Counted from the first letter of the stretch, positions 11,048-64,000 are shown. The stretch: 64,000 nt of DNA from Gemmatimonadota bacterium (GCA_031367105.1 JANLPG010000129.1:24690-88689); one strand, 5' to 3'. Notes: generated by a model from the sequence alone, not told the origin. Made by a program: numbers and translations.

Positions 11048-11118
<71 letters not shown>

Positions 11119-19892: not shown

Positions 19893-20998
19893 CGAGCGCC
19901 CGCCGCACCCATCCCGGTCGGGCCGGTACCAAGCATCAGTGTCTTGATCACCTTCCCCTGCTTCACGTCGATGATCGAGAGCCAGCCATCGCGCGGGTTC
20001 ATCCCCTGCATCCCGGTCATCCCCGGCATATGGTCGTGCGCGCTCTCACCCGGTTTCACGGCACCGGTGTTCTGGTTCACGACGAAGAGCAGCTTCCCGT
20101 CGCGACGCAGGATCAGGTCGTACGGCTGGGCCAGATCGCCCGTGATCGTGCGCCGCACCCTGCCGTGCTTCACATCGACCACGGCGACGGCATTTCCGCC
20201 GAACAGGGTCACGAAGACGGTCTTTCCATCGGCGCTGAACATCGGATCCCACGGCTTCCCTGCGAGCGGAATTTCGCGCACCGGGGTGAACGGAGGCGGT
20301 CGGGTCAGATCGAACACGAGCAACGTGTTGGAAAGTTCGCCTCCGACCACCATCGTCTTCCCGTCCGGGCTCTGGGCGAACTGCACCAGCGAGCGCGTCA
20401 CTCCCGCGAGGGTCGTCAGGGTGACCTGTCCGGTCGCGGTGGCGACCGAGGCGATCCGGTTTTCCGCCAGCGAAGCCGTATGCACCCACTGCCCGTCGCG
20501 ACTCGCCAGCAGCGCGTGCGGTCGGGGGAGCTGAATTTCCTGCGGTTCCAGCAGCGTGAAATCGGAGCGCCGGATCACCGCGAGTGACTTCGGAGGATTG
20601 ACCGCCGTCATCGAGCGACCAACGTAGAGCGAATCGTGCATCGGGTCGAGCGCCAGCAGTCCCGGCGTCTCCATCTTCACCTGACCGACCACGTGGTTAT
20701 TGCGGTCCAACTTCACGACGAGGCCGTCACCAATCAAGGAGACGTACCAGAAGGAGCCGTCCTGTTCCACCACAACGTGGTGCGGCTTGGCGTTGCCGGT
20801 GAAGCCCATCGTTTTCAAGTCAAGCACCGTGTCGATCGTCAACTTGAACTGGTCGACCACGGTGATGGAGGCGCCAGACTGGTTCACGATGTAGAGCTTC
20901 GCCCCCGCCGGCGGAACGGGGGCCCCCGAAGGGGCCCCCGCGCCGAGACCGACCACTGCCGCGAGGAGCCCAGCAGATCGCGTCAGGAGCGCGATCAC
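19889..20998 (-). CDS. secreted YVTN/YncE-like beta-propeller protein with Met/His-rich C-terminal loop
   Basis: Signal peptide followed by repeated propeller blades (LYIVNQSGASITVVD, FWYVSLIGDG, LYVG..., VFVTLFGGNAVAVVD, LLFVVNQNTG). The loop SAHDHMPGMTGMQGM is visible. It has 4-nt overlaps with both neighbouring genes. Confidence 0.7.
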   Translation of the reverse strand: MIALLTRSAGLLAAVVGLGAGAPSGAPVPPAGAKLYIVNQSGASITVVDQFKLTIDTVLDLKTMGFTGNAKPHHVVVEQDGSFWYVSLIGDGLVVKLDRNNHVVGQVKMETPGLLALDPMHDSLYVGRSMTAVNPPKSLAVIRRSDFTLLEPQEIQLPRPHALLASRDGQWVHTASLAENRIASVATATGQVTLTTLAGVTRSLVQFAQSPDGKTMVVGGELSNTLLVFDLTRPPPFTPVREIPLAGKPWDPMFSADGKTVFVTLFGGNAVAVVDVKHGRVRRTITGDLAQPYDLILRRDGKLLFVVNQNTGAVKPGESAHDHMPGMTGMQGMNPRDGWLSIIDVKQGKVIKTLMLGTGPTGMGAAGAR

Positions 20999-40213: not shown

Positions 40214-42736
40214 TCACGGCAACGGGTTGAGCCGCAACCGCGCCCAGTCCCATCCGGCCATCCCTCGCCGGTTCACCGCCCGGACCTGCACGATCATCCC
40301 CGGCGTAGCCCCCGGCAGGCGCGCACTGGCCCCCGTCGTCGAGATCCGGTGAGCCGTCGGGTCCGCCTCCGGCCCCCAGGTGACGTCGTAGCGCGCCACC
40401 CTCCCCTCTCGGCTCGGCGTCCAGTGAACGTCGGCCACGCCATCGCGCCACCGCTCCACGGCCAGCCCCCCGAGCCGCGACGGCGACGAGGCCAGCAGCA
40501 TCAGCGTCGCAACGGTCGTCTTGCTCACTTCGGCGATGAGCTGATGGTTCTCGTACTCCAGGACATCGTGCGGCATATGGTAGTGCGGATTGCCCAGCAC
40601 CGGGTACGAGCCGATCCCACCGACGATGTCGCCCCACGCCTCGTAATACGCGGCCGCGTCGGTGTTCTTGTAGTAGAGCGCGTCGTAGGTAATCAGTGCC
40701 GAAAACTGTTGCGCCGCCGCGTGCTGGATATCCCGGATCCCGGGATTCGAATACCGGATCGTGTTGTCGAGCCGGCCGTCGTTGGCCCAGCCGATCATAT
40801 CGTTGTTCAGCGCGCCGACCACCTGAACACTGTCGGCGATCGCGCGGCGGACAAATTCCCGGCTTCCCAGCAACCCCGCCTCTTCTCCCGTGAACGACGC
40901 GAAGATGATGGTCGCCGGCTGCGGATGCGCCGCGAGCACACGCGCGGCCTCGAGCAACGCCGCCGTCCCCGAGCTGTTGTCGTCGGCCCCCGGCCCCTCG
41001 GCCCGGGAGTCGAAGTGCGAACTGACCACGTACACCAGCTCCGGATGTTCGCTGCCCTTGAGGACGGCGAGGACGTTGGCACTCTTCCCGCCGAGGGCAT
41101 CTCGCAGCGCGAACCACTGCGGTCCGGCGACATAGCCGAAGGAGCGGTAGGTATCCGTCAGGTACTGGATCGCCTTGGCATTCCCAGGCTGGGAGATGTG
41201 CTTCGAGTCGAAGTCGAAGAGTGATTTTTCATAGCCAGCAATCCGGGCGACATCCACTTCCTGCGTCACCTGACGCACGGCCGCGGCAATCGGGCGAAAC
41301 GACGCACGCCCGCGATCGCGCAGCGACACCTCGGCGGCACGATCACTCCGGATCCGTGCCAGCAGGGCAGCATCGAGGACCTTGTCGTCGAGATCGGCGA
41401 GGTAAACGCCCCGCTCCGGCGAAACAGTATTGCCATCCCGCTCCGCCACGATCAACACCCGGCAACCATCGGCACTCACCACCCATTCGTACTCCGGCGC
41501 GATGGTGCGGATGGTGTTGTTGTGAAACAGGCGCGTTCGCTGCAGCGTGGTCGCATCGTAGAGGTAGCTGCGCCGGTGCCGTGGTTCGCCGATCACCGAG
41601 AGCACCCTGTTGCCATTCATCCAGACCGGGAGCACGTCGTGCTGGATCTCGCGGGTGAGCCGTACTTCGTTCTTTCCGTCACTCCCGATCAGGTACAGTT
41701 CCCAGTCGTACAGCGGCATCTGCTGGAACACCACGCGACTGCCGTCGGGCGAAAGCGCCGGGTTGGCGAGCGGCTCGCTGGCGCTCTTCACCACCACCGG
41801 TTCACCGCCGGCAATCGGGGCGACCACGATGTTGGTCATCCCGTTTGGCGATCGCGTGAGGTAGGTGACCGCGGTGCCCTGCGCCGCGATCGAGGCATTC
41901 GCGCCGTCCACCCGCCGGGCCGTTCCCGTCTCGAGGTCGACAATCGCAAACGCCGTTGCGCCCCGGAGTCCTGCCGCACCGTGCGCCAGGCGCACCGGAA
42001 TGCCGGCGACGATCGCGTGCACCAGGTATCGACCACCGCGCAACGGGATCGGCGCAGCTTTGAATCCATCGAGTGGCGCCACCGGACCGGCGACCGTGTA
42101 ACTGCCGTCACGCAGCACCAGCTTGAGGATCTCGTTACGTGGCGCTATCTCGCCGTCGCGGGCCGCCACCACGAACAGCACTCCATCGGTTACGCCGAAC
42201 ACCACTCCCGTCGGATGCCACGGCGCCATCCCCACGATCGGCACGGCTCGTCCACTCACCAACTGTTCGACGACAAGCTCCGACGCCGCACCAGCGACCC
42301 GGAGGTAGGCGAGCAGCGTGTCACTCAGTGATATCGCTGCCGCCACGCCGTTGACTTCGCGCACGGACTTCAGCCCCGGGGCGGAGCGGACGATCCGGGT
42401 CACACGGCCCACCGCCGGGCCAGTCTCGAAGGTGGCGAGCGCGCCACTCGGCGAGAAGGCGGGACGACTTCCGTCGGCCGTGAGTTCTCCCGTCTGATAC
42501 AGTTCGCCGGTGATCAACGCGATCGAGTCGCGAAAGCTGGGCGCGATCGGACTGGCGAGGATCCGCGTGAAACCGTCAAGCGCCGCGATGTACGCACCGT
42601 GCTCCCAGGCCAGCGCGGCCGCACGATAGTCGCCCGCGGACCGCGGAGGCGGCGTGGGGGCCACCCGGGTACGCTGCTGAGCGGCGAGGGTCGCGGGGAG
42701 CAGGAGGGTGAGCAGGAGGAGCTGGCGGTGCTGCAT
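40214..42736 (-). CDS. secreted PD40-propeller / M28 aminopeptidase / FN3-like multidomain protein
   Basis: Signal peptide, a PD40 repeat (ALSPDGSRVVFQQ), the M28 zinc site region SSHFDSRAEGPGADDNSSGTAALLEAARVLA and a C-terminal FN3-like strand pattern. Confidence 0.8.
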   Translation of the reverse strand: MQHRQLLLLTLLLPATLAAQQRTRVAPTPPPRSAGDYRAAALAWEHGAYIAALDGFTRILASPIAPSFRDSIALITGELYQTGELTADGSRPAFSPSGALATFETGPAVGRVTRIVRSAPGLKSVREVNGVAAAISLSDTLLAYLRVAGAASELVVEQLVSGRAVPIVGMAPWHPTGVVFGVTDGVLFVVAARDGEIAPRNEILKLVLRDGSYTVAGPVAPLDGFKAAPIPLRGGRYLVHAIVAGIPVRLAHGAAGLRGATAFAIVDLETGTARRVDGANASIAAQGTAVTYLTRSPNGMTNIVVAPIAGGEPVVVKSASEPLANPALSPDGSRVVFQQMPLYDWELYLIGSDGKNEVRLTREIQHDVLPVWMNGNRVLSVIGEPRHRRSYLYDATTLQRTRLFHNNTIRTIAPEYEWVVSADGCRVLIVAERDGNTVSPERGVYLADLDDKVLDAALLARIRSDRAAEVSLRDRGRASFRPIAAAVRQVTQEVDVARIAGYEKSLFDFDSKHISQPGNAKAIQYLTDTYRSFGYVAGPQWFALRDALGGKSANVLAVLKGSEHPELVYVVSSHFDSRAEGPGADDNSSGTAALLEAARVLAAHPQPATIIFASFTGEEAGLLGSREFVRRAIADSVQVVGALNNDMIGWANDGRLDNTIRYSNPGIRDIQHAAAQQFSALITYDALYYKNTDAAAYYEAWGDIVGGIGSYPVLGNPHYHMPHDVLEYENHQLIAEVSKTTVATLMLLASSPSRLGGLAVERWRDGVADVHWTPSREGRVARYDVTWGPEADPTAHRISTTGASARLPGATPGMIVQVRAVNRRGMAGWDWARLRLNPLP

Positions 42737-42866
42737 CGTGGAACTCCAGGTTGTCGATGACCCTGCTCAGCTCTCCCGTCGGCCCGCCATCAGCCCCACA
42801 GATCGACGGAAGCAGAAACTACCGCCCCACTACCCCCGGCGCATCCGCCCCGGCACGTTTCGCCGG

Positions 42867-44183
42867 ATGCAGGATTCCACACCTCTCGCCGCCGGCTCCG
42901 AACTCGCCGACGTCATCTTCCAGGCGATCGTCACCGCCGGCCTGGCCGGCTTCGCGCTGGTCCTCTACCGCCGCGTCCGGGAGCGGTGGCTCGCCTGGTG
43001 GGCCGCCGCGTGGGCGCTCTACTTCGTGCGCCTCACCGCGATCCTCGCCTTTCTCGCGACCGGCAAACTGACCTGGCTGTTCTGGCACCAGGTGGCCACC
43101 GGCTGGGTGGCGCTGGCGATTCTCTGGGCCGCCCTGGTCTTCTCGCGCGGACTCCCCTGGCGGCACCGCTATGCCGCGCTGGCCCTCGTGCCGCTCGTCG
43201 GGGCCGGGCTCGCCGTCGCCTTCCTCGACCAATTCCTGCTGGTCGCGATTCCGATGGTGGCGGTGATCTCGGGCGCGACGCTGTGGACCGCCTGGGTCTT
43301 CTGGCGCCACGGCCGGCAAACCGATTCCAGCGGTGCCCGATTTGTGGCGTTTGCCTTCCTCCTCTGGGGACTGCACCACCTCGACTATCCCTTTCTCCGT
43401 GCCAAGGGCGCCTGGACGCCGTGGGGATACTACCTCGACATTCTCTTCGAACTCGCCGTGGGTGTCGGTTTCGGCCTGATGGTGCTCTCCGACCTCGCCA
43501 CCCGACTGGCCGGACGCACGGACGACCTCGCTCGGCTCTCCGGACTGATGGTGCGACAGCACGAGGCGGAGCGGCGACGGCTCTCTCGCGACCTGCACGA
43601 CGAGACTGCGCAGACCCTGTCAGCGGTCAAGCTCGAGGTCGGAATGCTGCGCGAGAGCGGCGACGAGCTCGCCCGCGCGCGGTTCGACCGGATTCTCCAG
43701 CTTGTCGACAACGGCATCCGAGGCATTCGCCGCGTGATGAACGACCTCCGCCCCGCGCTGCTCGATGACCTCGGGCTCCTCCCGGCGATCCGCTCCCTGG
43801 CCCAGGATGTCCGGCAACGAAGTTCGCTGCTGATCGAGACCGACCTCCCCGACGCAATGCCGGCGCTCACCGTCGATGCCGAACTCGCGCTCTTCCGGGC
43901 GGTACAGGAGGCCCTCGCCAATACGGTGCGCCACGCGGCTGCTTCCCGCGTGTCCATCCGGATCCGGACCGACGAGGCCGGCGTCCAGATCATTGTCCGT
44001 GACGATGGTCGCGGCTTCCCTCCCGGGCGTGACCTCCTCAGCTTCGAGCGCGAAGGCCATCTCGGTCTCGCAGGAATGCGCGAGCGGATTGCCGGGCTGG
44101 GCGGCACGTTCCGGGTGGATGGCAGCGTTGGCGTGGTGGTGATGGTGTCGGCGCCGATCACCGCAGCGTCTCCCGAGTCGTGA
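42867..44183 (+). CDS. membrane sensor histidine kinase (HisKA_3 / NarX-DesK type)
   Basis: ATG at 42867. About 6 TM helices with no large periplasmic loop. The H-box is HEAERRRLSRDLHDETAQTL, and the ATPase boxes are EALANTVRHA and DDGRGF. Confidence 0.85.
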   Translation: MQDSTPLAAGSELADVIFQAIVTAGLAGFALVLYRRVRERWLAWWAAAWALYFVRLTAILAFLATGKLTWLFWHQVATGWVALAILWAALVFSRGLPWRHRYAALALVPLVGAGLAVAFLDQFLLVAIPMVAVISGATLWTAWVFWRHGRQTDSSGARFVAFAFLLWGLHHLDYPFLRAKGAWTPWGYYLDILFELAVGVGFGLMVLSDLATRLAGRTDDLARLSGLMVRQHEAERRRLSRDLHDETAQTLSAVKLEVGMLRESGDELARARFDRILQLVDNGIRGIRRVMNDLRPALLDDLGLLPAIRSLAQDVRQRSSLLIETDLPDAMPALTVDAELALFRAVQEALANTVRHAAASRVSIRIRTDEAGVQIIVRDDGRGFPPGRDLLSFEREGHLGLAGMRERIAGLGGTFRVDGSVGVVVMVSAPITAASPES

Positions 44184-44235
44184 CGACGCGCCGCGCCGCC
44201 ACGGCGGCGGCAGGAACTTTCCAGGAGTGGGAACG

Positions 44236-44895
44236 ATGACTCATCCACCGATCCGCGTCGCCGTCGTCGACGACCACGCGGTCGTCCGCGAAGGCATTCG
44301 CCGCGTCCTCGAGGGCGAGCCGGGTGTCACGGTCGTGGGCGAAGGGAAGAACGCCGAAGAGGCGCTTGCGCTGGTAGCGAGCGCACAGCCGGACGTCCTG
44401 GTGATGGATGTCGCGATGCCCGGGCGCACGGGACTCTCGGTGGCGGCAGAACTGAATCGCCGTGGGAGCCCAACCAAGGTGCTGATTCTCTCGATGTACG
44501 ACCAGCCGGAGTATGTACTCGAGAGCGTGAAGGCGGGCGCGCGAGGTTACCTGTTGAAGGATTCAGCGCCGGCGGAATTGCGTCGCGCAGTGCGCACCGT
44601 GTTCGCCGGCGAAAGTTATTTTCCGCCCGCCGTTGCCGCCCAGTTGACCGCAGCGATGCGCGCCGACGCGATGCCGCCGTCACCGCTCACGTTGCTCACG
44701 CCACGGGAGCGCGATGTGCTCGTCGGGATCACGCGCGGCGACACCAACAAGCAGATCGCTTCGCAGCTCGGCATCTCGCACCGCACCGTCGAGACGCATC
44801 GCGAATCGCTGATGGACAAGCTCGGCATCCGCACCGTGGCGGGACTGACCAAGCTGGTGATGGAGGAGGGGCGGCGGAGCGATCGTTCGTCCTGA
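44236..44895 (+). CDS. NarL/FixJ (LuxR-type HTH) response regulator
   Basis: AGGAG lies upstream of the ATG at 44236. The receiver is VAVVDDHAVVREG...VLVMDVAMPG and the LuxR HTH is LTPRERDVLVGITRGDTNKQIASQLGISHRTVETHR. Confidence 0.9.
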   Translation: MTHPPIRVAVVDDHAVVREGIRRVLEGEPGVTVVGEGKNAEEALALVASAQPDVLVMDVAMPGRTGLSVAAELNRRGSPTKVLILSMYDQPEYVLESVKAGARGYLLKDSAPAELRRAVRTVFAGESYFPPAVAAQLTAAMRADAMPPSPLTLLTPRERDVLVGITRGDTNKQIASQLGISHRTVETHRESLMDKLGIRTVAGLTKLVMEEGRRSDRSS

Positions 44896-49622: not shown

Positions 49623-50972
49623 TCAAGCGGGTCCCGTATCGATCCGGAAGGGCTCCTCGAACCGCAGCGTGACCACTGGCAGGAGTACATCCGGCGGGGT
49701 ATCGGGCAGCACCACCGACAGCCTCCCGTTGACGAGCGCGACCGGCAACTCTGCGGGCCGCGGCCCGAGGAGAGTGGCCTTGACCGGGCGAGTTCGCAAG
49801 CCCGGAAGGGCGAGCGCACCCGCCTTCCAATCCAGGAGAAAGAGATGGAGGCGGGTCGGGGTCTCGGTGGTGGAGAGGAATCCCTGCGGCCTGGGAAAGC
49901 GTGACGCCGTGGTGCCGTAGATGGTCTTGCCGTGCAGGCGCATCCACACACCAATGGCCTCCAGTCGCTCCACCGCCTCCGGCGGGAAGCGACCATCGGC
50001 CATCGGACCGACATTCAGCAGAAGATTGCCCCCCTTCGATGCAGTCTCGACCAGCAGTTCCACCAGCGTGCGAGCCGACTTCCAGTTGTGGTCGCTCGCC
50101 TTGAATCCCCAGTTGTCGTTCATCGTGATGCACGACTCCCAGTCCTCGCCGGGGAGCCCGGTGACGGGGATCGTCTGCTCTGGCGTGCCGAAATCACCGA
50201 GACCGCCAGCCTTCGGCGCACCCGCGCCGTCGATCCGGTTGTTGATCAACAACTTTGGCGCCTTGGAGCGAACCTGCGCCTCGAGCGCGAGCGCCAGCTT
50301 GTGGGTCCAGGTCGCCTCCCACTGACCGTCGAACCAGAGGATGTCGATCGGTCCATAGCTGGAGAGCAACTCATCGACCTGGGTGTGCAGATAGGTCACG
50401 TAGCGGTCGAAGCGTGCGTCACCCACCGGACGCGAGGTCGCTTCCCAGTCCCGGCGCGGGAGGTAGTCGGGATGATGCCAGTCCATGATCGAGTGATACC
50501 AGCCGACTCTGATGTCACGCTTGCGGAGTGCCTGGGCGAGGTCCCGGCAGATGTCCCGCTGCGAAGGCGTCTGCTTCACGTCGAACTCACCCAGCGGTGA
50601 GTTCCAGAGGCAGAAGCCATCGTGGTGCTTGGTGGTGAGCACCGCGTATTTCATCCCGGCACGCTTGGCCAACGCGGCCCATTCATCAGGGTCGAAGGCG
50701 GCAGGGTTCCACTGTTGCAGCAGGCTGTCATACTCCTTCACCGGGATTCGGGCGTTGTTGCGGATCCATTCCGCCCAGCGCTCATCCTCTTTCCACTTCC
50801 CCGCCAAAATCGAGTAGAGGCCCCAGTGGAGGAACAACCCGAAGCGAGCCTCACGCCACCACGCCATCCGGTCTGCGCTGCCGGCCGCGGCGAGTGCGGG
50901 GCGAATGCGGTGCACCACCGGGACGGCCAGCCCCGCTGCGGTGACGAAGTCGCGCCGGGAGAGTGGGGTCAC
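49623..50972 (-). CDS. GH29 alpha-L-fucosidase with twin-arginine signal
   Basis: The leader SRRDFVTAAGLAV is followed by WWREARFGLFLHWGLYS and KYAVLTTKHHDGFCLW, which are GH29 hallmarks. Confidence 0.85.
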   Translation of the reverse strand: MTPLSRRDFVTAAGLAVPVVHRIRPALAAAGSADRMAWWREARFGLFLHWGLYSILAGKWKEDERWAEWIRNNARIPVKEYDSLLQQWNPAAFDPDEWAALAKRAGMKYAVLTTKHHDGFCLWNSPLGEFDVKQTPSQRDICRDLAQALRKRDIRVGWYHSIMDWHHPDYLPRRDWEATSRPVGDARFDRYVTYLHTQVDELLSSYGPIDILWFDGQWEATWTHKLALALEAQVRSKAPKLLINNRIDGAGAPKAGGLGDFGTPEQTIPVTGLPGEDWESCITMNDNWGFKASDHNWKSARTLVELLVETASKGGNLLLNVGPMADGRFPPEAVERLEAIGVWMRLHGKTIYGTTASRFPRPQGFLSTTETPTRLHLFLLDWKAGALALPGLRTRPVKATLLGPRPAELPVALVNGRLSVVLPDTPPDVLLPVVTLRFEEPFRIDTGPA

Positions 50973-53749
50973 GGCTTCGCTCGCAACCGCGCCTGCGTCC
51001 GCCGAGACTCGACCGTCGCCGGCTTGTCACTCCACGTCGGCCAATTCCGGTCGTTGGCGAGCCGCTGGACCACGTCAACAAACATCGCGGCATCCTCCAC
51101 CGCGCCGCCGAGGTCCCAGTCGCTGCGGAGTTCGTCGTTCACCTGATGATATTCACGAGCGAGGTACGCATCGTTGCGCTGCTTCCCCCACCCGGTGGGT
51201 CGTGCGATGTAGTCCATTCCGGAACCAGCGAAGAGCCCGGGGATTCCCGCCTTCGCAAAGGCGTAGTGATCCGAGCGCACATAGAAGTTCTGCTCCGGGA
51301 ACGGATCACGGGTCAGCACCCGTCCCTGCCGTGCTGCCGCGTTTCGCAGCAGCGTGTCGAGCGAGCTCATCCCGTCACCAATCGAGACGACATCACGCGT
51401 GCGTCCCCACGGTGCCATGAAGTCGAGGTTGAGCACCCCCGTCGTCTTGGCCAGCGGAACCAGCGGATGCCGGACATACCACTCGGCACCGAGGAGCCCA
51501 AGCTCCTCCACCGCCGTCGCGATGAAGAGCACCGACCGGCGCAGCCGGGGACCGGCCGTGATCGCCCGGGCCATCTCGAGGAACTGGGCGACACCACCGG
51601 CGTTGTCGAGCGCACCGTTGAAGATCTGATCGCCTTTGAGTGTGGTATCGCGGCCGAGGTGATCGTGGTGCGCCGACACGACGACGTACTCGTCACGCGC
51701 CGCAGGGTCGCTGCCCCGCACCATCCCGACGACGTTGTTGGTCGTGAAGCGCTCCACCGTCGGAGTATATGAGATGCTCAGCTGGCCGGGAATCGCCAGA
51801 GGGTGAAACAACTTGGTGCGCGCGACGGTCGTCAGCGCGTCCAGTGTGCCGATGGGGGCCACCAGGTGCGCGCCGGAGACATCGGCGCGAAGCAACAGGG
51901 TGGTCAGCGCGGGCACCGACGTCGCGTCGGCGGCCAGTGAGGAGATCGGCCGTGAAACCCTTCGCCGGTTGGCGCGGACCACCATATCCGAGGCGAGCGT
52001 CACGACACCGATGGCGCCACGATCCCTTGCCACCTCCGCCTTCAGACTGGTCGGGAAACTCACCGTGAGCGCGTCCCATTCCGGCCCGCTCGGCAGACCG
52101 GCGAGCTGGACCACGATCTTGCCTCGGACATCGACGTTTTTGTAGTCATCCCAGCGGTGGTCGAGGGTCACGATGCCGTACCCGACGAAGGTCATCTCGC
52201 CCTTGACGCTCCGCGGTGTCTCGCCGCCTGAGGCCAGCACGACGGCTCCGCTGTCGGCGTAGGCGATGGACACGCCATCACGGAACAGGGCGGCGCTGCC
52301 ACTCCCGCGGATGCGCGTCATCTCCACGGGTTGGAAGAATGTCCCGTCGCGGACCCCGCTCGTCAGGCCGAGCGTGCGAAGCTCCTGGCGCACGTACGCT
52401 TCGGCGAGTGCGTCGCCCCGGGTCCCAGGACCGCGCCCTTCGAACGAATCCGAGGCAAGGATGCGAACATGTTGGAACATCCGCGCGGCAACCACATCCA
52501 TTTCGTCCGTGACCGCGGTGCGCAGCATCGCGCGGGTGGAATCCGGCGAACCATCATTCGGGGCCGGTGTGAGGCCGAGGATGGCACACATCAGGTCGTA
52601 GACGTGAATGTTCTGGAACGAAGGCACGACTTGCCCGCGGCGGAAGGCCGGTCCACCCGCAACGAAAAGTGCTCGCATCGACGGAAGCGTGTTATCCCAG
52701 CCGTGTGAGGCACTCGTCGCCGACCAACTCTCGACCCGGCCTCGGCGAGTGATGCTCCAGCCTTCGTCGGCGACGAGTACCAGCGGCGTGATGCGGGGAT
52801 TGTTGTTGAAATGGAACCGTGCCGGCACCTCGCCCTTGCGATACACTTGCAGATGCGGGTGCGCGCGCTTGAGCCTGGCGTACACGGCCTCCAGCTTCCC
52901 CGGCTTCGGTGCAATCGCGCCCACCGGCGTCCAGTCGATCACGTCGACATCGTCGAGCGAGATGTAGTCGTCGATCACGATCAACTGATCGCTGGGCGTC
53001 CGCTGCATCCCGTGATCGGCCACCACAATCACATTGACGCGTTGAGCAAGGGTGCGCGCCGTCAGTCCATCGAGCAATCGGCCGATCATCGAGTCGACCC
53101 GAGCGATCGCGGCGTCCGTCTCGGGCGCGTCGGGGCCGTACGTGTGACCCGCGTGATCGACGTCGCTGAAATAGAGCGTAACCAGGGAGGGCGCTGTCCC
53201 CCGGGGCCGGGAGAGCCAGGTCAGGACCGAGTCGACCCGTGCCGCATTGGGAAACGAGTCGACAAAACGTTTCCAGATCGTGGCACGCACTCCGCCGATC
53301 GCTGCCTCAGAGCCGGGCCAGAAGAAATTCGCGGCCCGCTTGCCCTGCTTCTCGGCCGTGACCCAGATCGGCTCGCCGCCCCACCAGCGCGCATCCCGCA
53401 CGGCGACAGAATCCGCCATCGTGAAGGAACCGAGCAGCGAGTCGCGGATGTTGTTCGCGACGATGCCGTGATGTTCCGGATAGAGTCCGGTGACGATGGT
53501 GTAGTGGTTGGGAAAGGTCTTGGTGGGAAACGAAGGCGTCATCCATTCAGCACGGACGCCGCCCCGAGCCAGTCGCTGCAGGTTCTTCGCGACCGGACGG
53601 TCGAGATAATCGGCCCGGAAGCCATCGAGCGAGACCAGGACAATGGCCTGATCACTCGCGGCAGGGCTGGCGCCCGTGCCGGGCCGGGAGGCCGTTGAGC
53701 AGGCGGCGAGGAGCAGCAGGGCAGCGGACCGAACGATGTGGTTGCGCAT
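50969..53749 (-). CDS. fusion of nucleotide pyrophosphatase/phosphodiesterase (NPP) and M28 peptidase domains
   Basis: ATG at 53749 with a lipoprotein-like leader (LLLLAACS). The NPP motifs are VLVSLDGFRADYL and FPTKTFPNHYTIVTGLYPEHHGIV. The C-terminal half has the M28 motifs NNVVGMVRGS...VVVSAHHDHLG and NGALDNAGGVAQFLEMARA. Confidence 0.8.
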   Translation of the reverse strand: MRNHIVRSAALLLLAACSTASRPGTGASPAASDQAIVLVSLDGFRADYLDRPVAKNLQRLARGGVRAEWMTPSFPTKTFPNHYTIVTGLYPEHHGIVANNIRDSLLGSFTMADSVAVRDARWWGGEPIWVTAEKQGKRAANFFWPGSEAAIGGVRATIWKRFVDSFPNAARVDSVLTWLSRPRGTAPSLVTLYFSDVDHAGHTYGPDAPETDAAIARVDSMIGRLLDGLTARTLAQRVNVIVVADHGMQRTPSDQLIVIDDYISLDDVDVIDWTPVGAIAPKPGKLEAVYARLKRAHPHLQVYRKGEVPARFHFNNNPRITPLVLVADEGWSITRRGRVESWSATSASHGWDNTLPSMRALFVAGGPAFRRGQVVPSFQNIHVYDLMCAILGLTPAPNDGSPDSTRAMLRTAVTDEMDVVAARMFQHVRILASDSFEGRGPGTRGDALAEAYVRQELRTLGLTSGVRDGTFFQPVEMTRIRGSGSAALFRDGVSIAYADSGAVVLASGGETPRSVKGEMTFVGYGIVTLDHRWDDYKNVDVRGKIVVQLAGLPSGPEWDALTVSFPTSLKAEVARDRGAIGVVTLASDMVVRANRRRVSRPISSLAADATSVPALTTLLLRADVSGAHLVAPIGTLDALTTVARTKLFHPLAIPGQLSISYTPTVERFTTNNVVGMVRGSDPAARDEYVVVSAHHDHLGRDTTLKGDQIFNGALDNAGGVAQFLEMARAITAGPRLRRSVLFIATAVEELGLLGAEWYVRHPLVPLAKTTGVLNLDFMAPWGRTRDVVSIGDGMSSLDTLLRNAAARQGRVLTRDPFPEQNFYVRSDHYAFAKAGIPGLFAGSGMDYIARPTGWGKQRNDAYLAREYHQVNDELRSDWDLGGAVEDAAMFVDVVQRLANDRNWPTWSDKPATVESRRTQARLRAKP

Positions 53750-53874
53750 CCGCTGAGGATGCCACGAAACGCCGCTGAACGCCACCCCCGACGGGAACGC
53801 CAAGGGAGATTCCCCCCAGGCCGAATATCCGAGCGTCGCGCAGGGCCAGACGGCAGCGGCGTTCTATCCATCCA

Positions 53875-55771: not shown

Positions 55772-57572
<1,801 letters not shown>

Positions 57573-57725
57573 AAAGATAGGGGAAGATCGATCATCGATC
57601 ATTGACCATCGCGGATCGAAGGCCGAGCTTCGTCACACTTTGGAACCTCTGAAACGTTCCCCTCGTAGGGCCCCCTATTCCACGACCACCACCCTCCCAC
57701 CGGCCTCGCCGCACGGGGAAGCACG

Positions 57726-58637
57726 ATGCCAAGAGCGCTTCGCCTCGCGATCCTCGCCCTCCCGCTCTTCGGATGCGGTGGGGCCGACGGCCGTGCGATG
57801 GACCTCTCCGACCCTGCCGTTCTGGCCTCGCACCAGAAGAAGCAGCTGGAGGGAGCCGCCGCTATCAGCCGCGCCAGCGACAGCATCACTCGAGCGATGA
57901 CGCACGATGAGGCGGCGATCCAGCTCGCCGACCGCCCCGCCACGCCGGTCGACTCCCTCGCAGAGTACCGCGCCCGAGTCGACTCACTCCGCACCCTGAA
58001 TCGCTCCCGGCTGGTAACCATCACCCATCTGCACCGGCAACTCGACGCCCTCGGCCCCGGTGTGCAGTTCGTCAACGATTCACTCCGCGTTGCCCGGCGG
58101 CACCTCGCCGACCTCGAGACGCTGCTCCTGCGGCGCGAACAGCGCATCGTCCAGCTCGAGACCGAGGTGGATTCCCTGCTGCGGGCCAATGGCATTCTGG
58201 TCGAAGCAAACGCCGGGCTGCGCGACACCATCGTGGTGTTGCGTGACACCATCTTCGGACTCCGGCACCGGGTCGACAGCATCAGCGGCCTCACGCGTGC
58301 ACCCGCCGAGCTGGAGCGTGCCAGCACTGCCAACGCGCTGTATGCCGTGCTCACGAAGGAGGAGGTGCAGCGGATGGATCTGGTGGGTGCGGATGATTTC
58401 CTGCGCTGCGACCGGATGCCGAGCGGCTCGGTCGCCCTCGATCCCGGGCACGCCGCGCAGATCCGGCTGCCGCGTACCCGCAAGGGGTACGACCTCGTCG
58501 GCCGCCCGGATGTGCGGGCAATGCAGCAGGCCCGTGAGGCGGTCTGGTCGTTCGACGACGAGACGATGCTGTTCACGATTCACGACGCCGAGCGCTTCTG
58601 GAGAGGCTCGTCCTGCCTGGTCTTCGTCACCCAGTGA
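57726..58637 (+). CDS. coiled-coil lipoprotein, unknown function
   Basis: Lipobox LPLFGC. A central heptad-like region (LADLETLLLRREQRIVQLETEVDSLLRANGILVEANAGLRDTIVVLRDTI) is followed by a globular C-terminal domain. There is a GTGA overlap with the next gene. Confidence 0.6.
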   Translation: MPRALRLAILALPLFGCGGADGRAMDLSDPAVLASHQKKQLEGAAAISRASDSITRAMTHDEAAIQLADRPATPVDSLAEYRARVDSLRTLNRSRLVTITHLHRQLDALGPGVQFVNDSLRVARRHLADLETLLLRREQRIVQLETEVDSLLRANGILVEANAGLRDTIVVLRDTIFGLRHRVDSISGLTRAPAELERASTANALYAVLTKEEVQRMDLVGADDFLRCDRMPSGSVALDPGHAAQIRLPRTRKGYDLVGRPDVRAMQQAREAVWSFDDETMLFTIHDAERFWRGSSCLVFVTQ

Positions 58638-61600
58638 ACCGCCTCGCGCTGACCGTGCGGCAGACCGTCCTGTCGCTCCCCGGTATCGCACTGCTCTCCG
58701 GCCTGACGGTCGTCATTGTTGCAGGGAGTGCACCGTCACGGGTGCTCACGGTGGCATTGCTGATCGAGATCCTCTGGATTGCCGGCGCGGCCTGGCGCGT
58801 GTTGCGCCGGGAGCACGTCGCCAATGGACTGCTCCCCGCCTTCCTTTGCGTGGTGCTGGTCGGCGTCGCTGCCTCGTACTTCGCCCTGATGAATCAGGCG
58901 AGTCAGACCCGTCTCGAACTCCGTGGCGTTGTCTTTCCGATGCGGCGCGGACACTTCACGGTGGGCACGGTGCCCGGGGTCTCCGCCAGACTTGCGATAC
59001 CAGGCGACTCGATTCCGGGGTGGCAGCTCTTCATCACCCGACAGGACAGCGGTGCCTTCCGTCTCGATTCCCTCGATGGCATCGATGCCGTTGCTGCTCG
59101 CCCGGTGCGCGGCAGCGGTCCGCTCCGTGGGGCAGCGCTCGTCACCGACGGTGCGCCGCTCCAGTTGAGCGATCGTGACTCCGGCACCCGTTCCGCCCCG
59201 CTCGCTCTGGTGCGCGATCCGGGGGGCAAGCCGGTGCTCGTGACCGGTGCCGACACCGCCTTTCTCGCTCCAGGGGGGCGGATCGACGCCGATCCGGTGC
59301 TGGAGCACCGCCGTGAACACGATCTGCGCGCCGGTCTGACACTCGACCGATTGCACTGGTCTCAGGCGCCGCCCGAGTGGGCTTCCTCCTTTTCCGTCTC
59401 CCTCCCCGATGATGACGCGCTGCAACGACTCCTCCGACTGACGGGGTTTCGCCCGAAGCAGGATCTGATCCTCACCCCGTCGGCGCTCGGCGCCGACCTC
59501 GCTTCGACAGTGGTGGCCGCAGCGGTCGAACCGGGTGACACCATCGAGGTGTCAAGCGGTGGGCGGCGTTGGGAGTTTGCATTGGAGTCACGCGGTGTCC
59601 AGGATGAAGACACCAGGCTCGCCGTCGTTCGGTTCGTGCGGAATCCCCGTCCGCTCCTCTCCGCACTTCCGCCGCGAAGCGTCTGTACCTCGAACGGTGT
59701 GAACGATGGCGAGTGCGGCCTCGTCTCCAGCCACCTGATTCCGGGCACATCACCGCTGCTGTACTTCGCCGGACTCGGCCTCGACACCGCTCGCTACTTC
59801 GCCATCGGCCGCGCCGTCGAAGGAAAGGCGGGAGTCATCTTCGCGACTCACACCGCAACGCGTGACACCTTGCGCTTCGGTGAGGAGGCTCTGGTCGCGG
59901 CCTTTCCTACCCGGGCTTCGGCTGGCTATCTGCTCCGCTTCACCCACCTCACAGCGTCCGACGGCGCCCGGATCATCGTTGCCTGCATCGGCCTGCTCCT
60001 GATGGTGTTCGGCGCGATCGGGATTGCCAAGCGTGGCGCCCGCTCCGACGCCGATGAGCGTCTCCCTGTCATCCGGGGTGCCGACGCCACGGTTCTCGGG
60101 ATGGTGGTGCTCGCGATTCTTGGCCTCCGCCTGACGCTCGGCCTGCGCATCGCCGAGGCCAACCCCTATGTCGAGAGTGGGAGGAATACCGCCTTTGCGA
60201 TGTGGTGTGTCGTGGTCCTCGGGTTCGTCCTGGTGATCCGTGGAGCGGCACTGATCGAATGGCTTGATCGCTTCGGACGGCGGCACGCGCTGGTTCTCGC
60301 CACCGCGGCAGCGGCAGTGCTGCTGCCCGCCTATGCGCTCAACCCCGGCCGTGCTCCGCTGGCTTCCGGTGGCATCGTGATCGTCATCCTGTGCGGGCTC
60401 GCGTTCCTCTCGCGTCGCGGGACCGAGCGCGAGCGGCTTCGGGAGAAGCTGCCGATGATCGCCCTCTGTGGTGGGACACTGGTGGTGCTGTTCGCGGGCG
60501 TGAGTGGGGAGACGGCTCGACTGCCGCTGGATGTCCTGGCGCGCGTCGCCGGGTACGCACTGATCGCGGCCGCCGCCTCGCTCGGTTGGTCGACGGCACT
60601 CCGCGGCCTCGGCAGCTGGGCGGTGCAAGGGCAGCGCTTCCTGGCGGCTGCCCTCACCGCCACGGTGTTCCTGATCGTGGTGATTTCGCCTGCCTCCCGG
60701 CTCGGCCGCATGGCACTGTTCGCCACAATTCTGGTGGCGCTCAACGTCTTCGCACGACGAGGCCGGGCATTCGAGCAGTTGTCCGACTCGTTCCGTTCTC
60801 CAAGCCGATCCCGCTGGCTCTGGGCCGCGATGCCCGCCGTGCTTCTGGTGCTGATGGCGCGTGCAGATACCGGCCTCGCACTCGTGGCTGGTATCCCGCT
60901 CACGCTGGCGCTTCTCCTCGCGATCCCCCCGGGTGCCGCACTCTGGCGTCGCCGCCTGCTCTGGAGCTACGGGCTCGTGGGGTTGGTGGCGGCGCTCTGC
61001 ATCTACCCGGTGTTTTTCCCCCGCACCGACGTGCTGAAGAGCGCCATTCGGTGTGGCAGCTCCGCCGTCGAGCAGGATGAGGCGTTTCGCGGCCTCGGCG
61101 GACCGCTGCGATTCTGGCCGTCTTCGTCGCGGGCGCTGGTGCGTGGCATCGCGGCACACGATCCGGAATATCTCGAGGCGATGCTGCTGACCGCGGGACC
61201 GTCGGCCGCGCGCGAAGAGATCATTCGCTCGATCGAGCAGGTGCAGGGTGGACTCGCCTATGCTGTGGCGGGGTGGAGCGGCGAAGGCCTGGTATCGCCT
61301 GCCCCACTCGGCCGCGGTGTCCCGACTGCTGTGGCCTACGCCGAAAACACCTTCGATGTCTTCGTGGTGCAGGAACACGGTGTGCTTGGCGCACTCGCCG
61401 TCCTGATCCTCTACCTCTCACTCCCGACCCTCCTGCTTCTGCCGCTCCTTCGCCGGCCCGCCGTCGAGACGCACGATGCCGCCTTCCTCTTTGCGGCCGC
61501 CCTGCTGATTTCGATTCCGGCGTGGTACGTCGCCGGTGCCAATCTCGGAATCTTCCCGCTCACCGGACAGAACATTCCCTTCCTCGGCCTCAACTCGTGG

Positions 61601-61702
61601 GTCGACGTGCTGCTCTACGGCGGACTCGCCGCCCAGGGCGCGGCCTTCATCGGGCGCGGCGAAGTGGCATCCCTCGCCGTATCGGGGAGCAGCGCGTCGT
61701 GA
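58634..61702 (+). CDS. giant SEDS (FtsW/RodA/SpoVE)-like polytopic membrane protein with ~470-aa N-terminal extension
   Basis: 1022 aa. In the C-terminal half, ARADTGLALV, GWSGEGLVSPAPLGRGVPTAVAYAENTFDVFVVQEHGVLGALAVLILY and GIFPLTGQNIPFLGLNSWVDVLLYGG align by eye with SEDS landmarks (PDLGTALV; GxGxG..LPexhTDFIFaxigEExG; lPvTGvxLPfxSYGGSS). Key residues are substituted. The N-terminal part has 2-3 TM plus beta-rich, FHA-like segments. Confidence 0.6.
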   Translation: MNRLALTVRQTVLSLPGIALLSGLTVVIVAGSAPSRVLTVALLIEILWIAGAAWRVLRREHVANGLLPAFLCVVLVGVAASYFALMNQASQTRLELRGVVFPMRRGHFTVGTVPGVSARLAIPGDSIPGWQLFITRQDSGAFRLDSLDGIDAVAARPVRGSGPLRGAALVTDGAPLQLSDRDSGTRSAPLALVRDPGGKPVLVTGADTAFLAPGGRIDADPVLEHRREHDLRAGLTLDRLHWSQAPPEWASSFSVSLPDDDALQRLLRLTGFRPKQDLILTPSALGADLASTVVAAAVEPGDTIEVSSGGRRWEFALESRGVQDEDTRLAVVRFVRNPRPLLSALPPRSVCTSNGVNDGECGLVSSHLIPGTSPLLYFAGLGLDTARYFAIGRAVEGKAGVIFATHTATRDTLRFGEEALVAAFPTRASAGYLLRFTHLTASDGARIIVACIGLLLMVFGAIGIAKRGARSDADERLPVIRGADATVLGMVVLAILGLRLTLGLRIAEANPYVESGRNTAFAMWCVVVLGFVLVIRGAALIEWLDRFGRRHALVLATAAAAVLLPAYALNPGRAPLASGGIVIVILCGLAFLSRRGTERERLREKLPMIALCGGTLVVLFAGVSGETARLPLDVLARVAGYALIAAAASLGWSTALRGLGSWAVQGQRFLAAALTATVFLIVVISPASRLGRMALFATILVALNVFARRGRAFEQLSDSFRSPSRSRWLWAAMPAVLLVLMARADTGLALVAGIPLTLALLLAIPPGAALWRRRLLWSYGLVGLVAALCIYPVFFPRTDVLKSAIRCGSSAVEQDEAFRGLGGPLRFWPSSSRALVRGIAAHDPEYLEAMLLTAGPSAAREEIIRSIEQVQGGLAYAVAGWSGEGLVSPAPLGRGVPTAVAYAENTFDVFVVQEHGVLGALAVLILYLSLPTLLLLPLLRRPAVETHDAAFLFAAALLISIPAWYVAGANLGIFPLTGQNIPFLGLNSWVDVLLYGGLAAQGAAFIGRGEVASLAVSGSSAS

Positions 61703-64000
61703 GCGACGTCCTGCAACTCAAGCCGGGCTCCCGCTCGTTCGATATTCGCTGGGTGATCACGATCATCATCGTGCTCAACCTCTGCGGCTTCCTGTACGTC
61801 GGCTTGACGCTGTGGGTCACCTCACTCGGACCCAGGCGGCCGTTTGCGGTGGCCTATGCCGCCCTCGAGCGCCGGATGGAGACGATCCTCAGTGCCAGGC
61901 GAGAGCTGAACCCACTCGCGCGCGGCGTCACGGTGCAGCGATTCGGCGTTGGGCGGGCCGGCGGCTCCACCGTCTGTGCCGATAGCCTGAGGGTCGACCC
62001 CGCTGAACGGGCGCGCTATCCCTCGCTGCGCGACGGCGGATTCCTCGCCGACCAGATTCAGCTGTACAACACCATCCGTCGCAAGCAGGTACGGCTCGCT
62101 CGCCTCGGGCAACTCGACCTCGAGGAGATCTGCGGCTCGCCAACCCCCTCGATCCTCCTCGCCGGTGAAGAGGGCGCCGATTCCAGCCAGCTTTCCCGGC
62201 GCGTTGCCATCGAGAACCTCAGGGTGCGCGCCCCCGTGGCGTCCACCACCTTCGGTGTATTGGGTCGAGGAGCAATGGGGGGAAAGTTTGGACTCACCTC
62301 GCGCGATGGCATCGCGCTCCTCGGTGGCCGCGATTCACTCTCACCGAGTGGATGCCAGCTCCGGGCCGTCACGCCGCCCGGCATCACGGCGCTGCAATGC
62401 CTGGAACGTGGCGGTCCACCGAGAGAGGTCAACTTCAGCGAGGCCGGACGACTCGGCCCGCTGTCGGTCCGGGTGATTCCGGCGAAGCTCAAGCTTCGGC
62501 TCGATGGTGCCCTCGTGCCTCCTGGCAAGGACGTCTCGCTGCCGCGCGGCACGCTGGTGGACCTCCGACTCGGCGACAGCGCGCTCATCGAGCCCGCCGT
62601 GGTGACACGCACGCCGGGGAAACCGCTTGGTGGAGTGCGCTGGATCAACGGCCGGTTGCAGTGGGTCCCGATGCTTCCGGGGTTGCCGATCTATCTGCGC
62701 GACGCCCTGGCGGCCGGCGCGTTGCTGCCCGATTCGCTCGTGGCGAAGTCCGGCGCCGATCGCTTCCTCCGACTGACGATCGACCCCGAGCTCACGGTCG
62801 AGTTGAACGCACGGCTGAATCACTTCGTCGCGGGCGATAGCAAGGTGCTGCGAAGTGACTTGCGCTTCGCTTCGGTCCTGCTTCTCGACATTGCCACCGG
62901 GGAGATCCGCGCAATCGGGGAGGTGGGCCGTGCTCGCGACGGCCTCAGCTGGTTCCGCCAGCCGGTTACGGTGGGATCAGCGATCAAACCGGTACTGGCC
63001 GTGTCGATCCTGAGTCAGCGGCCGGCGCTGGGGTCGCTGGAGGTCTATCACGGAAGCGAGGCAACGGTGAACTCGCTCGGAGGAATCTCATTCGGCACTG
63101 CCACCTTCGAGGTGGGTCACGCCTGCCCGGCGAATCAGTGGATCGGCTTGCGGCGCTTCCTCGCGTGTTCAAGCAACCTCTACGCTGCGTCGCTCACTGC
63201 ATTGGGACTGCAAAGCGCCGAGGGCCAGTCGCCAGAAGTGACATCCGCTGCATTGCAATCCGGCACGATGCGCCAGTCGTCGAGTACCAGTCGCTATTTC
63301 ATCCCGAAGTTGCCGGCCAGTGGAATTCCGGAGCAGCTGTTTCACGCCAGTGCCCTCCGTGCCGGTCTCGATCGCGTATTCGATCTCACCGCGAGTGCCG
63401 AACTGGCGCGCGCGCAGCGCGAGACCAGGCCGTGGGATTCTCTCGCCATCGGCTTCGTTTCACCCGGCGCAGTGCCATCGCTTGCAACCGTCAATCCCGG
63501 ATCGGTGGCCGAGGTGTTTCCGTCGCGACTCGACCTCCTGCCACAAGGGAAGCAGCGCGAGCCGGCCCGGGGACTCGCCACCTACGCAATCGGTGCGGGA
63601 GAGAATCGCATCTCGCTGTTCCGGCTCGGCGAAGCGTATCTGCGGATCATCACCGACCGCCAGGTCAACATCGCGATGACGGCCTCGCCGGTCGATCGCG
63701 CCCTCGAACGGATGCCTCCGCTGGGCTTCTCTCGCGAGGCGTGGTATCCGCAGCTGATGGGGGGGCTGTCGGATGTCTTTCGTCCCGGCGGCACCGGACG
63801 GACGCTCGGTGACGCCGTCCGTCAGCGATTCCACGACGAAGTCCGACCCCTCGGCAAGACCGGCACACTGGGGGACTCCGACGATCGCGTCTTTGCCAAG
63901 ACTTTGGTGATGGCGCTGGTCCCCGCCCAGGCGTTCGCGGGAGCGGCGGCGCGTTGCGGTGTTCTGGCGGTGGTGTACTTCCGGTTCCGGAACTCCACCA
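61699..64000 (+). CDS. divergent penicillin-binding-protein-like transpeptidase (class B-like), 3' end beyond window
   Basis: This frame-1 ORF is open from the GTG at 61699 to the window end; it is not in the supplied track, and the translation is mine. It has an N-terminal TM (WVITIIIVLNLCGFLYVGLTLWV), LTIDPELTVELNARL, ASVLLLDIATGEIRAIGE, SxxK as GSAIKP (about 62977-62988), SxN as CSSNLY and KTG as GKTGTLGD. There is a GTGA overlap with the SEDS-like gene. Confidence 0.7.
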   Translation, partial: MSDVLQLKPGSRSFDIRWVITIIIVLNLCGFLYVGLTLWVTSLGPRRPFAVAYAALERRMETILSARRELNPLARGVTVQRFGVGRAGGSTVCADSLRVDPAERARYPSLRDGGFLADQIQLYNTIRRKQVRLARLGQLDLEEICGSPTPSILLAGEEGADSSQLSRRVAIENLRVRAPVASTTFGVLGRGAMGGKFGLTSRDGIALLGGRDSLSPSGCQLRAVTPPGITALQCLERGGPPREVNFSEAGRLGPLSVRVIPAKLKLRLDGALVPPGKDVSLPRGTLVDLRLGDSALIEPAVVTRTPGKPLGGVRWINGRLQWVPMLPGLPIYLRDALAAGALLPDSLVAKSGADRFLRLTIDPELTVELNARLNHFVAGDSKVLRSDLRFASVLLLDIATGEIRAIGEVGRARDGLSWFRQPVTVGSAIKPVLAVSILSQRPALGSLEVYHGSEATVNSLGGISFGTATFEVGHACPANQWIGLRRFLACSSNLYAASLTALGLQSAEGQSPEVTSAALQSGTMRQSSSTSRYFIPKLPASGIPEQLFHASALRAGLDRVFDLTASAELARAQRETRPWDSLAIGFVSPGAVPSLATVNPGSVAEVFPSRLDLLPQGKQREPARGLATYAIGAGENRISLFRLGEAYLRIITDRQVNIAMTASPVDRALERMPPLGFSREAWYPQLMGGLSDVFRPGGTGRTLGDAVRQRFHDEVRPLGKTGTLGDSDDRVFAKTLVMALVPAQAFAGAAARCGVLAVVYFRFRNST

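Follow-up and report, generated by a model that had tools for sequence, protein, structure and literature searches.

At the end of a 64,000-nucleotide (nt) stretch of DNA from a Gemmatimonadota bacterium (GCA_031367105.1, JANLPG010000129.1:24690-88689), three overlapping plus-strand genes encode what appears to be a divergent relative of the pairs formed by SEDS glycosyltransferases (GTases) and class B penicillin-binding proteins (bPBPs), together with a lipoprotein. This whole stretch is referred to below as the window, and positions are counted from its first letter. Gene 1 (57726..58637, +), identified from its open reading frame (ORF), its lipobox and its homologues, encodes a coiled-coil lipoprotein of 303 amino acids (aa). 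The ORF of gene 2 (58634..61702, +) encodes a giant SEDS-like membrane protein of 1022 aa, and that of gene 3 (61699..64000, +) a penicillin-binding protein (PBP)-like product whose 767 codons are still open at the window end.

Consecutive genes share GTGA start/stop overlaps, at 58634-58637 between genes 1 and 2 and at 61699-61702 between genes 2 and 3, exactly where a first-pass annotation made from the sequence alone had placed them. A Shine-Dalgarno-like GGGGAG lies 9 nt ahead of the gene 3 start; no such sequence is found close to the start of gene 2, which fits translational coupling. The third-position GC fraction of 0.78-0.84 across the three genes is coding-like for the region. On the contig of a close relative (L001) the same triad is present with a complete gene 3 of 798 aa and is followed by msrB and glyoxalase genes. 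Because unrelated housekeeping genes come next there, the operon appears to consist of three genes, and the window falls short of the last 31 codons of gene 3; the annotation had described this gene as running off the window, and 767 of its 798 aa indeed lie inside. A promoter and terminator scan of 57300-64000 gave nothing exceeding shuffled expectation.

A SEDS-like core in gene 2

The C-terminal ~480 residues of gene 2 can be recognized as a remote homologue of the RodA/FtsW core by structural, profile and conservation evidence. This SEDS-like GTase core spans aa 546-1022 (60269..61702, +). An AlphaFold2 (AF2) model built from an 82-sequence alignment reached a predicted local distance difference test (pLDDT) score of 80.6 and a predicted template-modelling score (pTM) of 0.85. 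Searched against the PDB with Foldseek, it returned three matches with a probability above 0.2: FtsW 8p1u_A (E = 1.1e-3, probability 1.00), FtsW 8bh1_A (E = 0.035, probability 0.99) and RodA 6pl6_A (E = 0.065, probability 1.00), the last over 322 columns with a template-modelling score of 0.51 normalised to RodA. Among 38 full-length relatives of gene 2, PF01098 is the sole Pfam family that matches more than one (6 of 38, best E = 6.1e-6); it also matches the homologue at locus L003 (E = 0.0031) and one fused relative (E = 3.6e-4), and all of these matches are sub-threshold, below the gathering score. E. coli FtsW directly matches one family member (tblastn E = 8e-4). In hhalign, the C-terminal half of the family compared with E. 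coli RodA and FtsW pairs gene 2 residues 540-1019 with RodA residues 6-370 over 357 columns (E = 3e-4), while family profiles set against the single E. coli RodA and MrdA sequences align in register with statistically weak scores (E~0.01-0.02). The ten helices and the large extracytoplasmic loop before the eighth that define a SEDS fold are thus recovered by Foldseek and hhalign at modest E-values, in agreement with the earlier assignment of a SEDS-like core to this end of the protein.

The alignments also suggest counterparts for the acidic residues of SEDS enzymes. The segment ADTGLALV (nt 60863-60886, +) aligns in hhalign with QPDLGTSIL, which places D745 opposite RodA D159, the aspartate of the PDLG motif. 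In the deep-profile alignment the start of AENTFDVF (aa 903-910, nt 61340-61363, +), AENTF, pairs with HTDFIF and brings E904 opposite RodA D262. We take D262 to be the catalytic aspartate of RodA, the essential acidic residue at the start of the eighth transmembrane (TM) helix that corresponds to FtsW D297 in E. coli. A shallower alignment puts this register two residues off, so the pairing of E904 with D262 is not fixed to the residue. Position 904 is acidic in 141 of 141 relatives (D in 79, E in 62), D745 is kept in 130 of 134 and G747 in 131 of 134, and R505, R837 and G916, the last within QEHG (aa 913-916, +), are invariant. Also in the hhalign comparison, AYA.AGW.GEGL aligns with the SEDS GG..G.G loop and PLTGQNIPF with P..G.PLP; PLTGQNIPFLGLNSWVD occupies aa 975-991 (nt 61556-61606, +). 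Of the C-terminal SEDS motif P.TG.PLPF.SYGGSS, P.TG..P alone is shared, the remainder reading QNIPFLGLNSWVD. The first-pass annotation had described the SEDS hallmarks as substituted. This holds for SYGGSS, which is replaced; the other supposed substitution, given the acidic residue in every relative, mostly Asp, is better read as a conserved acidic position that is Glu in this clade.

Gene 2 might instead encode a transporter or another membrane protein unrelated to SEDS, its likeness being convergent or due to chance, and each statistic taken singly is indeed weak (hhalign probabilities of 3-40%, Foldseek E-values of at least 1e-3, Pfam scores below gathering). We consider this improbable: four independent methods agree on both the family and the register, in which the last three helices and the large periplasmic loop are matched, no competing family recurs, and the gene adjoins or is fused to a bPBP homologue, as SEDS genes are.

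Extra helices and a beta-rich domain ahead of the core

In gene 2, about 16-18 TM helices are predicted, which makes it a polytopic protein of the inner membrane. Its AF2 model runs in order through three helices, a beta-rich domain, a long helical TM region, an extracytoplasmic helical insert and three final helices. The first 91 residues (aa 1-91, 58634..58906, +) comprise a cytoplasmic N-terminus and three extra TM helices, modelled at 15-32, 35-59 and 66-88 and visible as hydrophobic segments. They are followed by the beta-rich domain of ~350 aa (aa 92-438, 58907..59947, +), whose strands have pLDDT values mostly between 70 and 94, and then by three more extra TM helices (aa 439-545, 59948..60268, +) indicated by AF2, hydrophobic segments and conservation. 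This last segment contains LRLTLGLRIAEANPY (nt 60125-60169, +), with the invariant R499/R505/P511 motif. Within the core, AF2 models a periplasmic helical loop at aa ~799-905 (+). Extra helices had been noted before, and so had an N-terminal extension of ~470 aa; both are real, the latter with its beta-rich domain, and the region ahead of the core measures ~545 aa.

Two kinds of landmark fixed the topology: the N-terminus of the SEDS core near aa 546, taken as cytoplasmic, and positively charged loops (RRE 58-60, KRGAR 467-471, RFGRR 546-550 and RRR 772-774). Given these anchors, the three helices before and the three after the beta-rich domain place it in the periplasm, between TM3 and TM4, as a prediction from the model. 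The domain has homologous counterparts in distant relatives at 28-30% identity. A Pfam scan of 38 family members gave no match for it, and Foldseek gave no credible PDB match.

Part of this domain had been described as FHA-like. That identification was rejected, since PF00498 matches neither the window protein nor any of the 38 relatives at E <= 1, and no FHA structure is among the Foldseek matches listed for gene 2. Together with the predicted periplasmic placement, the missing sequence and structure matches argue against a phosphothreonine-binding FHA role.

The unusual size of the 1022-aa ORF, and nothing else, would favor a frameshift or mis-assembly artefact that joined a separate N-terminal gene to a SEDS-like one, an explanation the first-pass annotation had itself raised. 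However, dozens of independent assemblies contain the full architecture, at 22-80% identity and with homology in both halves, and AF2 yields one packed protein (pTM as above). We rejected the artefact because the N-terminal domain and the C-terminal core are conserved together in relatives, and we give it a negligible chance.

Gene 3 resembles class B PBPs

Sequence profiles and modelling support the identification of gene 3 as a divergent class B PBP-type transpeptidase. AF2 and hydrophobicity indicate a single TM anchor (aa 13-43, nt 61735-61827, +), which makes the protein bitopic. The anchor is followed by an atypical N-terminal region that includes a beta-rich part (aa 196-322, +; AF2) and, from about aa 360 (+; AF2, Foldseek and profiles), by the transpeptidase domain. 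The three catalytic motifs previously reported are present as GSAIKP for SxxK (aa 426-431, nt 62974-62991, +), CSSN for SxN (aa 490-493, nt 63166-63177, +) and GKTGT for KTG (aa 719-723, nt 63853-63867, +). S427, K430, S491, S492, N493, K720, G722 and T723 are invariant across 11 homologues; because these share only ~30% identity, the motifs are not a matter of chance.

When the 11-member gene 3 profile was compared with PDB sequences, class B PBPs were the top 21 of 25 matches (best E = 1.1e-4), and the aligned stretch was the characteristic one running into SxxK. Including the fused relatives in the profile gave E = 1e-15 against PBP3, MrdA and T. thermophilus PBP2. The AF2 model has a pLDDT of 66 overall and of 70-94 over most of the catalytic domain. 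Foldseek returned 282 matches at E <= 1e-3 (best E = 4.4e-12, target-normalised template-modelling score up to 0.73), and the 50 listed are all PBP3/FtsI or PBP2-type entries. The predicted structure therefore has the penicilloyl-serine-transferase fold with SxxK, SxN and KTG in place. The transpeptidase model PF00905 does not match the window protein, and in relatives it reaches E = 5.9e-4 and E = 0.0016, below its 22.1-bit cut-off.

The earlier description of an atypical N-terminal region, put at ~370 aa, stands: the first ~360 residues give no signal for the pedestal domain PBP_dimer, an assignment that was dropped for want of a PF03717 match. AF2 models these 360 residues at low to moderate confidence. 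Some Foldseek alignments reach past the transpeptidase domain, and the fused-family profile aligns weakly with the pedestal region of MrdA.

Genes 2 and 3 occur together and are often fused

A word-indexed homologue search with gene 2 found four close relatives in Gemmatimonadales; repeated with an alignment, it still missed distant homologues and revealed two fused proteins, P0016 and P0017. The same kind of search with gene 3 found eleven relatives, down to 30% identity. On every contig carrying a distant gene 3 relative, an overlapping gene directly upstream encodes a protein of 1103-1136 aa that resembles gene 2, at 28-30% identity in the N-terminal domain and at 41-46% over the C-terminal 280 aa (E = 1e-42 to 1e-58). 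When 1.84 billion cluster representatives were searched exhaustively with HMMER, 366 relatives emerged at E <= 1e-3, 162 of them at E <= 1e-10.

Nearly half of the best 149 relatives (70) are longer than 1,350 aa, with a median of 1,738 aa (fusions are about 1,650-1,900 aa). In 61 of these 70 a gene 3-like domain lies behind the gene 2-like part in one polypeptide, so natural fusions of the two genes are common; P0016, for instance, matches the gene 3 family with an hhalign probability of 99.5% (E = 2.4e-23). A genome scan that sampled one genome per GTDB species located 65 loci. Nearly all are in Gemmatimonadota metagenome-assembled genomes (Gemmatimonadaceae, Gemmatimonadales and Longimicrobiales), with a few in Myxococcota/Polyangiales, Acidobacteriota, Aminicenantes and Rhodothermales. 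Complete chromosomes of such genomes that carry the module include OZ245038.1 and OY730414.1 (Longimicrobiales) and OY969418.1 (Acidobacteriota). At about 50 of the 65 loci, and at all distant metagenome loci examined, the gene 2 homologue is directly followed by a gene 3 homologue, and split and fused forms are both found within Gemmatimonadaceae. The proposal that genes 2 and 3 make up a pair of the SEDS-bPBP type is well supported by this overlap, adjacency and frequent fusion.

Some of these loci have neighbors of their own. In Gemmatimonadaceae with a fused form of ~1,760 aa, two conserved genes of ~659 and ~480 aa, with no Pfam match, precede the fusion. They are found at L053 (96-2075 and 2072-3514), and also at L052, L054 and L056-L058; the second overlaps the start of the fused gene. 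They may be further components of the fused-form system. At L002 (3900-6275, 15462-19898) a distant split pair has a NACHT NTPase gene on one side and an FtsK/SpoIIIE-WXG100 type VII secretion-like cluster on the other, and at L005 another pair adjoins an Mce-family gene. These two contexts suggest that the module also occurs outside Gemmatimonadota, in metagenomic lineages.

A recurrent lipoprotein

Gene 1 starts with a signal peptide whose lipobox, LFGC (nt 57765-57776, +), ends at Cys17. The protein also has a long coiled coil, recognized by coiled-coil Pfam models, and a conserved C-terminal domain that ends in DAERFW..S.LVFV. A BLASTP comparison of gene 1 with the ~360-aa proteins encoded downstream of distant pairs was not significant. 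Transitive clustering unites 14 such proteins, from 14 loci, into one family with gene 1. The NCBIfam model NF052320 (Cbp1-family lipoproteins) matches 10 of 10 scanned members (best E = 6.8e-22); window gene 1 scores 20 bits (E = 3.4e-4) against a model cut-off of 90. Homology within the gene 1 family thus emerged only through transitive clustering and the shared NF052320 match. Members lie upstream of split pairs (in the clade of the window), or downstream of either split pairs or fused genes.

These sequences point to gene 1 as a recurrent, conserved third component and a distant Cbp1-family relative, and the dedicated lipoprotein partner suggested by the first-pass annotation gains support from homologues that adjoin both split and fused forms. 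The Cbp1 family is named after the Bacteroides fragilis collagen adhesin Cbp1 (PMC3949742). Gene 1 and its relatives share with it the combination of a lipoprotein signal, a coiled coil and a C-terminal domain, but gene 1 is tied genetically to a SEDS-bPBP-like pair and nothing points to collagen binding.

Surroundings of the triad

The triad had been reported to lie apart from mreBCD, mur, fts and Ser/Thr kinase or phosphatase genes. A tblastn search that took E. coli RodA, FtsW, MrdA, FtsI, MreBCD, MurDEF, MraY and FtsL as queries gave no homologue anywhere in the 64 kb (best E = 0.022), so the first part of this statement stands for the whole window; the second stands for 40.2-57.5 kb, the part scanned, where none of the 10 upstream genes has a Pfam kinase or phosphatase domain of this type. 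FtsW aa 290-396 gave a weak tblastn match at 22750-23058 (27% identity, E = 0.29), opposite an 800-aa ORF at 20995-23394 (-), which is most likely spurious.

The lack of a canonical SEDS or bPBP gene in the window would leave room for the triad to be the ordinary RodA-PBP2 or FtsW-FtsI pair of this organism in a highly diverged form. We hold this to be very improbable. The family numbers merely 366 among 1.84 billion cluster representatives, not the universal set such a pair would form; it lies outside a dcw or mre context here and at all loci inspected; split and fused forms exist side by side in Gemmatimonadaceae; and the non-canonical SEDS/bPBP chimeras in a recent survey co-exist with canonical sets (PMC12516126). 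A housekeeping enzyme, moreover, would not be expected to escape every curated model.

Directly upstream and divergent from the triad is thiC (55772-57460, -). A thiamine pyrophosphate (TPP) riboswitch (57469-57572, -; Rfam RF00059, 66.8 bits, E = 6.2e-11) lies in the intergenic region that thiC has in common with gene 1, and it belongs to thiC, not to the triad. Beyond thiC are genes for a DUF885 protein, a phosphodiesterase-M28 fusion, a fucosidase, an amidohydrolase and a two-component system. The fusion (50969-53803, -) is a 944-aa protein that joins a type I phosphodiesterase/nucleotide pyrophosphatase domain to an M28 peptidase domain, and a second large M28 protein is encoded at 40214-42736 (-). 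The two-component system (42708-44895, +), a HisKA_3 histidine kinase with a LuxR-type response regulator, lies about 13 kb upstream, and no link to the triad was found. A single tRNA gene is located at 11048-11118 (-; Rfam RF00005, 67.7 bits).

Discussion

We think it fairly likely that the triad is a self-contained, non-canonical peptidoglycan synthase operon of the SEDS-bPBP type. Judged by its sequences, the family is a real, uncatalogued and deep-branching variant of the SEDS-bPBP synthase, and the trio probably acts as an extra peptidoglycan synthase. Full-text literature searches returned no description of this gene 2/gene 3 family.

Several observations weigh against such a reading. 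At E <= 1, neither the window gene 2 nor the window gene 3 protein matches any Pfam or NCBIfam model; phmmer finds no match for either among all PDB sequences, nor does a gene 2 profile built from 7 sequences. The first-pass annotation had proposed searches with PF01098, PF00905, PF03717 and PF00498 and would have counted the lack of any SEDS or transpeptidase match as a refutation; not one of these models matches the window proteins. Taken literally, this outcome goes against it, yet the deeper evidence still supports the core interpretation; because the direct hidden Markov model searches are empty, it is family profiles, structure prediction and transitive matches that carry the SEDS and PBP link. 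The gene 2 model matches its Foldseek targets with weak E-values (1.1e-3 to 6.5e-2) and is of low confidence at aa ~550-690. The family is small, with only 366 relatives, and the canonical SEDS family, which is huge, stays beyond the reach of its profile. The window protein has Glu where RodA D262 aligns, and LGLN.W.D where SEDS proteins have SYGGSS; the family consensus has no evident counterpart of QPSE..K, in what is a low-confidence part of the hhalign alignment. Gene 3 lacks a match to the PBP_dimer pedestal, and there are no cell-wall, mre, fts or mur genes nearby.

If the triad is a peptidoglycan synthase, gene 2 would polymerise lipid II by means of the conserved acidic residues D745 and E904, which would face the periplasmic loops. 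Gene 3, anchored by its one TM helix, would cross-link the stem peptides of the new strands through S427 of SxxK, S491 and N493, and K720-T-G. Contact and regulation, normally mediated by a pedestal, may depend instead on the beta-rich periplasmic domain in gene 2 and on the atypical N-terminal part of gene 3, with the Cbp1-like coiled-coil lipoprotein serving as a periplasmic scaffold or activator. We infer that the module would be accessory to the canonical elongasome or divisome rather than a replacement for it.

The main rival explanation, which we find rather unlikely, is that gene 2 is a polymerase or ligase of some other undecaprenyl-linked glycan (exopolysaccharide, O-antigen-like or capsule-like), or a flippase, and that the PBP-like protein is a DD-carboxypeptidase/endopeptidase, an esterase or a sensor instead of a cross-linking transpeptidase. 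SEDS proteins, Wzy and WaaL are thought to be structurally related. The extreme divergence from SEDS, with no PF01098 match for the window protein and no evident QPSE..K, would suit a different polymer, and so would the neighborhood, where peptidoglycan genes are missing and secreted hydrolases abound (fucosidase, M28 peptidases and phosphodiesterase). The relationship of gene 1 to a family named after an adhesin (PMC3949742) could be taken the same way. However, Pfam finds no Wzy_C or O-antigen-ligase match in the 38 gene 2 relatives, and the credible structural matches are FtsW and RodA only, not WaaL or other glycosyltransferases. The obligate partner, for its part, keeps all three catalytic motifs, and its likeness is to class B PBPs specifically rather than to beta-lactamases or PBPs of low molecular weight. 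This specific likeness to FtsW/RodA on one side and class B PBPs on the other argues against another glycan.

A bolder extension of the peptidoglycan synthase reading, which we put forward only tentatively and regard as somewhat doubtful, is that the giant SEDS-like protein represents a third, deep-branching lineage of the SEDS class. Together with its pedestal-less bPBP and Cbp1-like lipoprotein, it would work autonomously of MreB- and FtsZ-linked regulators, and in Gemmatimonadota as well as a few other phyla it would produce a specialised structure of the wall. This might serve budding or polar growth, form a layer associated with stress or dormancy, or be a glycan that is chemically distinct.

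SEDS-bPBP pairs are the core polymerases of the bacterial cell wall and targets of beta-lactams. Surveys of their diversity that rely on Pfam or InterPro miss the window proteins entirely and register relatives only below threshold. If these proteins are active, the SEDS fold tolerates far more divergence and elaboration than is known, with about 1,000 aa in the split form and about 1,750 aa in the fused form, pedestal-based coupling can be replaced, and a lipoprotein can be the fixed partner of a SEDS-type synthase. The fusions also offer natural single-chain GTase-transpeptidase (TPase) proteins for structural work, and the family gives a handle on the cell-envelope biology of the poorly studied Gemmatimonadota.

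The triad has several features in common with the RodA, FtsW and SpoVE systems and their class B PBPs, in which polymerase and transpeptidase genes are likewise adjacent and translationally coupled. Alignment matches the C-terminal ~480 aa of gene 2 to RodA from end to end, and the model of this part can be superposed on RodA/FtsW structures. A large periplasmic loop comes ahead of the third-last TM helix, acidic residues align with RodA D159 and, less firmly, with D262, and a P.TG..P motif lies ahead of the last helix. Gene 3 resembles class B PBPs in its single TM anchor and in SxxK, SxN and KTG. Unlike canonical pairs, the window proteins are undetected by PF01098, PF00905 and PF03717. Gene 2 has about 2.7 times the size of RodA; its additions include six TM helices and a periplasmic beta domain of 350 aa. 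It differs from SEDS proteins in having Glu at the position aligned with D262, LGLN.W.D for SYGGSS and no evident QPSE..K, and gene 3 differs from class B PBPs in having no recognisable pedestal. The triad as a whole stands outside an mre, fts or dcw context and has a dedicated coiled-coil lipoprotein.

Known synthases have activators of their own: LpoA and LpoB activate class A PBPs, and FtsQLB/FtsN and MreC act on SEDS-bPBP pairs. One may speculate that gene 1 is comparable to these as a periplasmic accessory linked to a synthase, with a coiled coil as in FtsB and FtsL, although no sequence similarity between them and gene 1 was detected.

A close parallel comes from a 2025 InterPro-based survey in Microlife, which described SEDS GTases with an outward-facing beta-sheet-rich region beside 'only-TPase' bPBPs in Bosea lupini, and 117 SEDS-bPBP chimeras averaging about 950 aa (PMC12516126). 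The surveyed proteins carry recognisable IPR001182/PF01098 and PF00905 domains, and Gemmatimonadota are absent from the main text of the survey (PMC12516126). Its non-canonical synthases and the present family have in common a periplasmic beta-rich domain in the GTase, a neighbouring bPBP that lacks the canonical pedestal, and GTase-TPase fusions (PMC12516126). In contrast to the surveyed chimeras, the present family largely escapes domain models and its fusions are roughly twice as large; it is further distinguished from the surveyed synthases by six additional TM helices and a conserved lipoprotein partner (PMC12516126).

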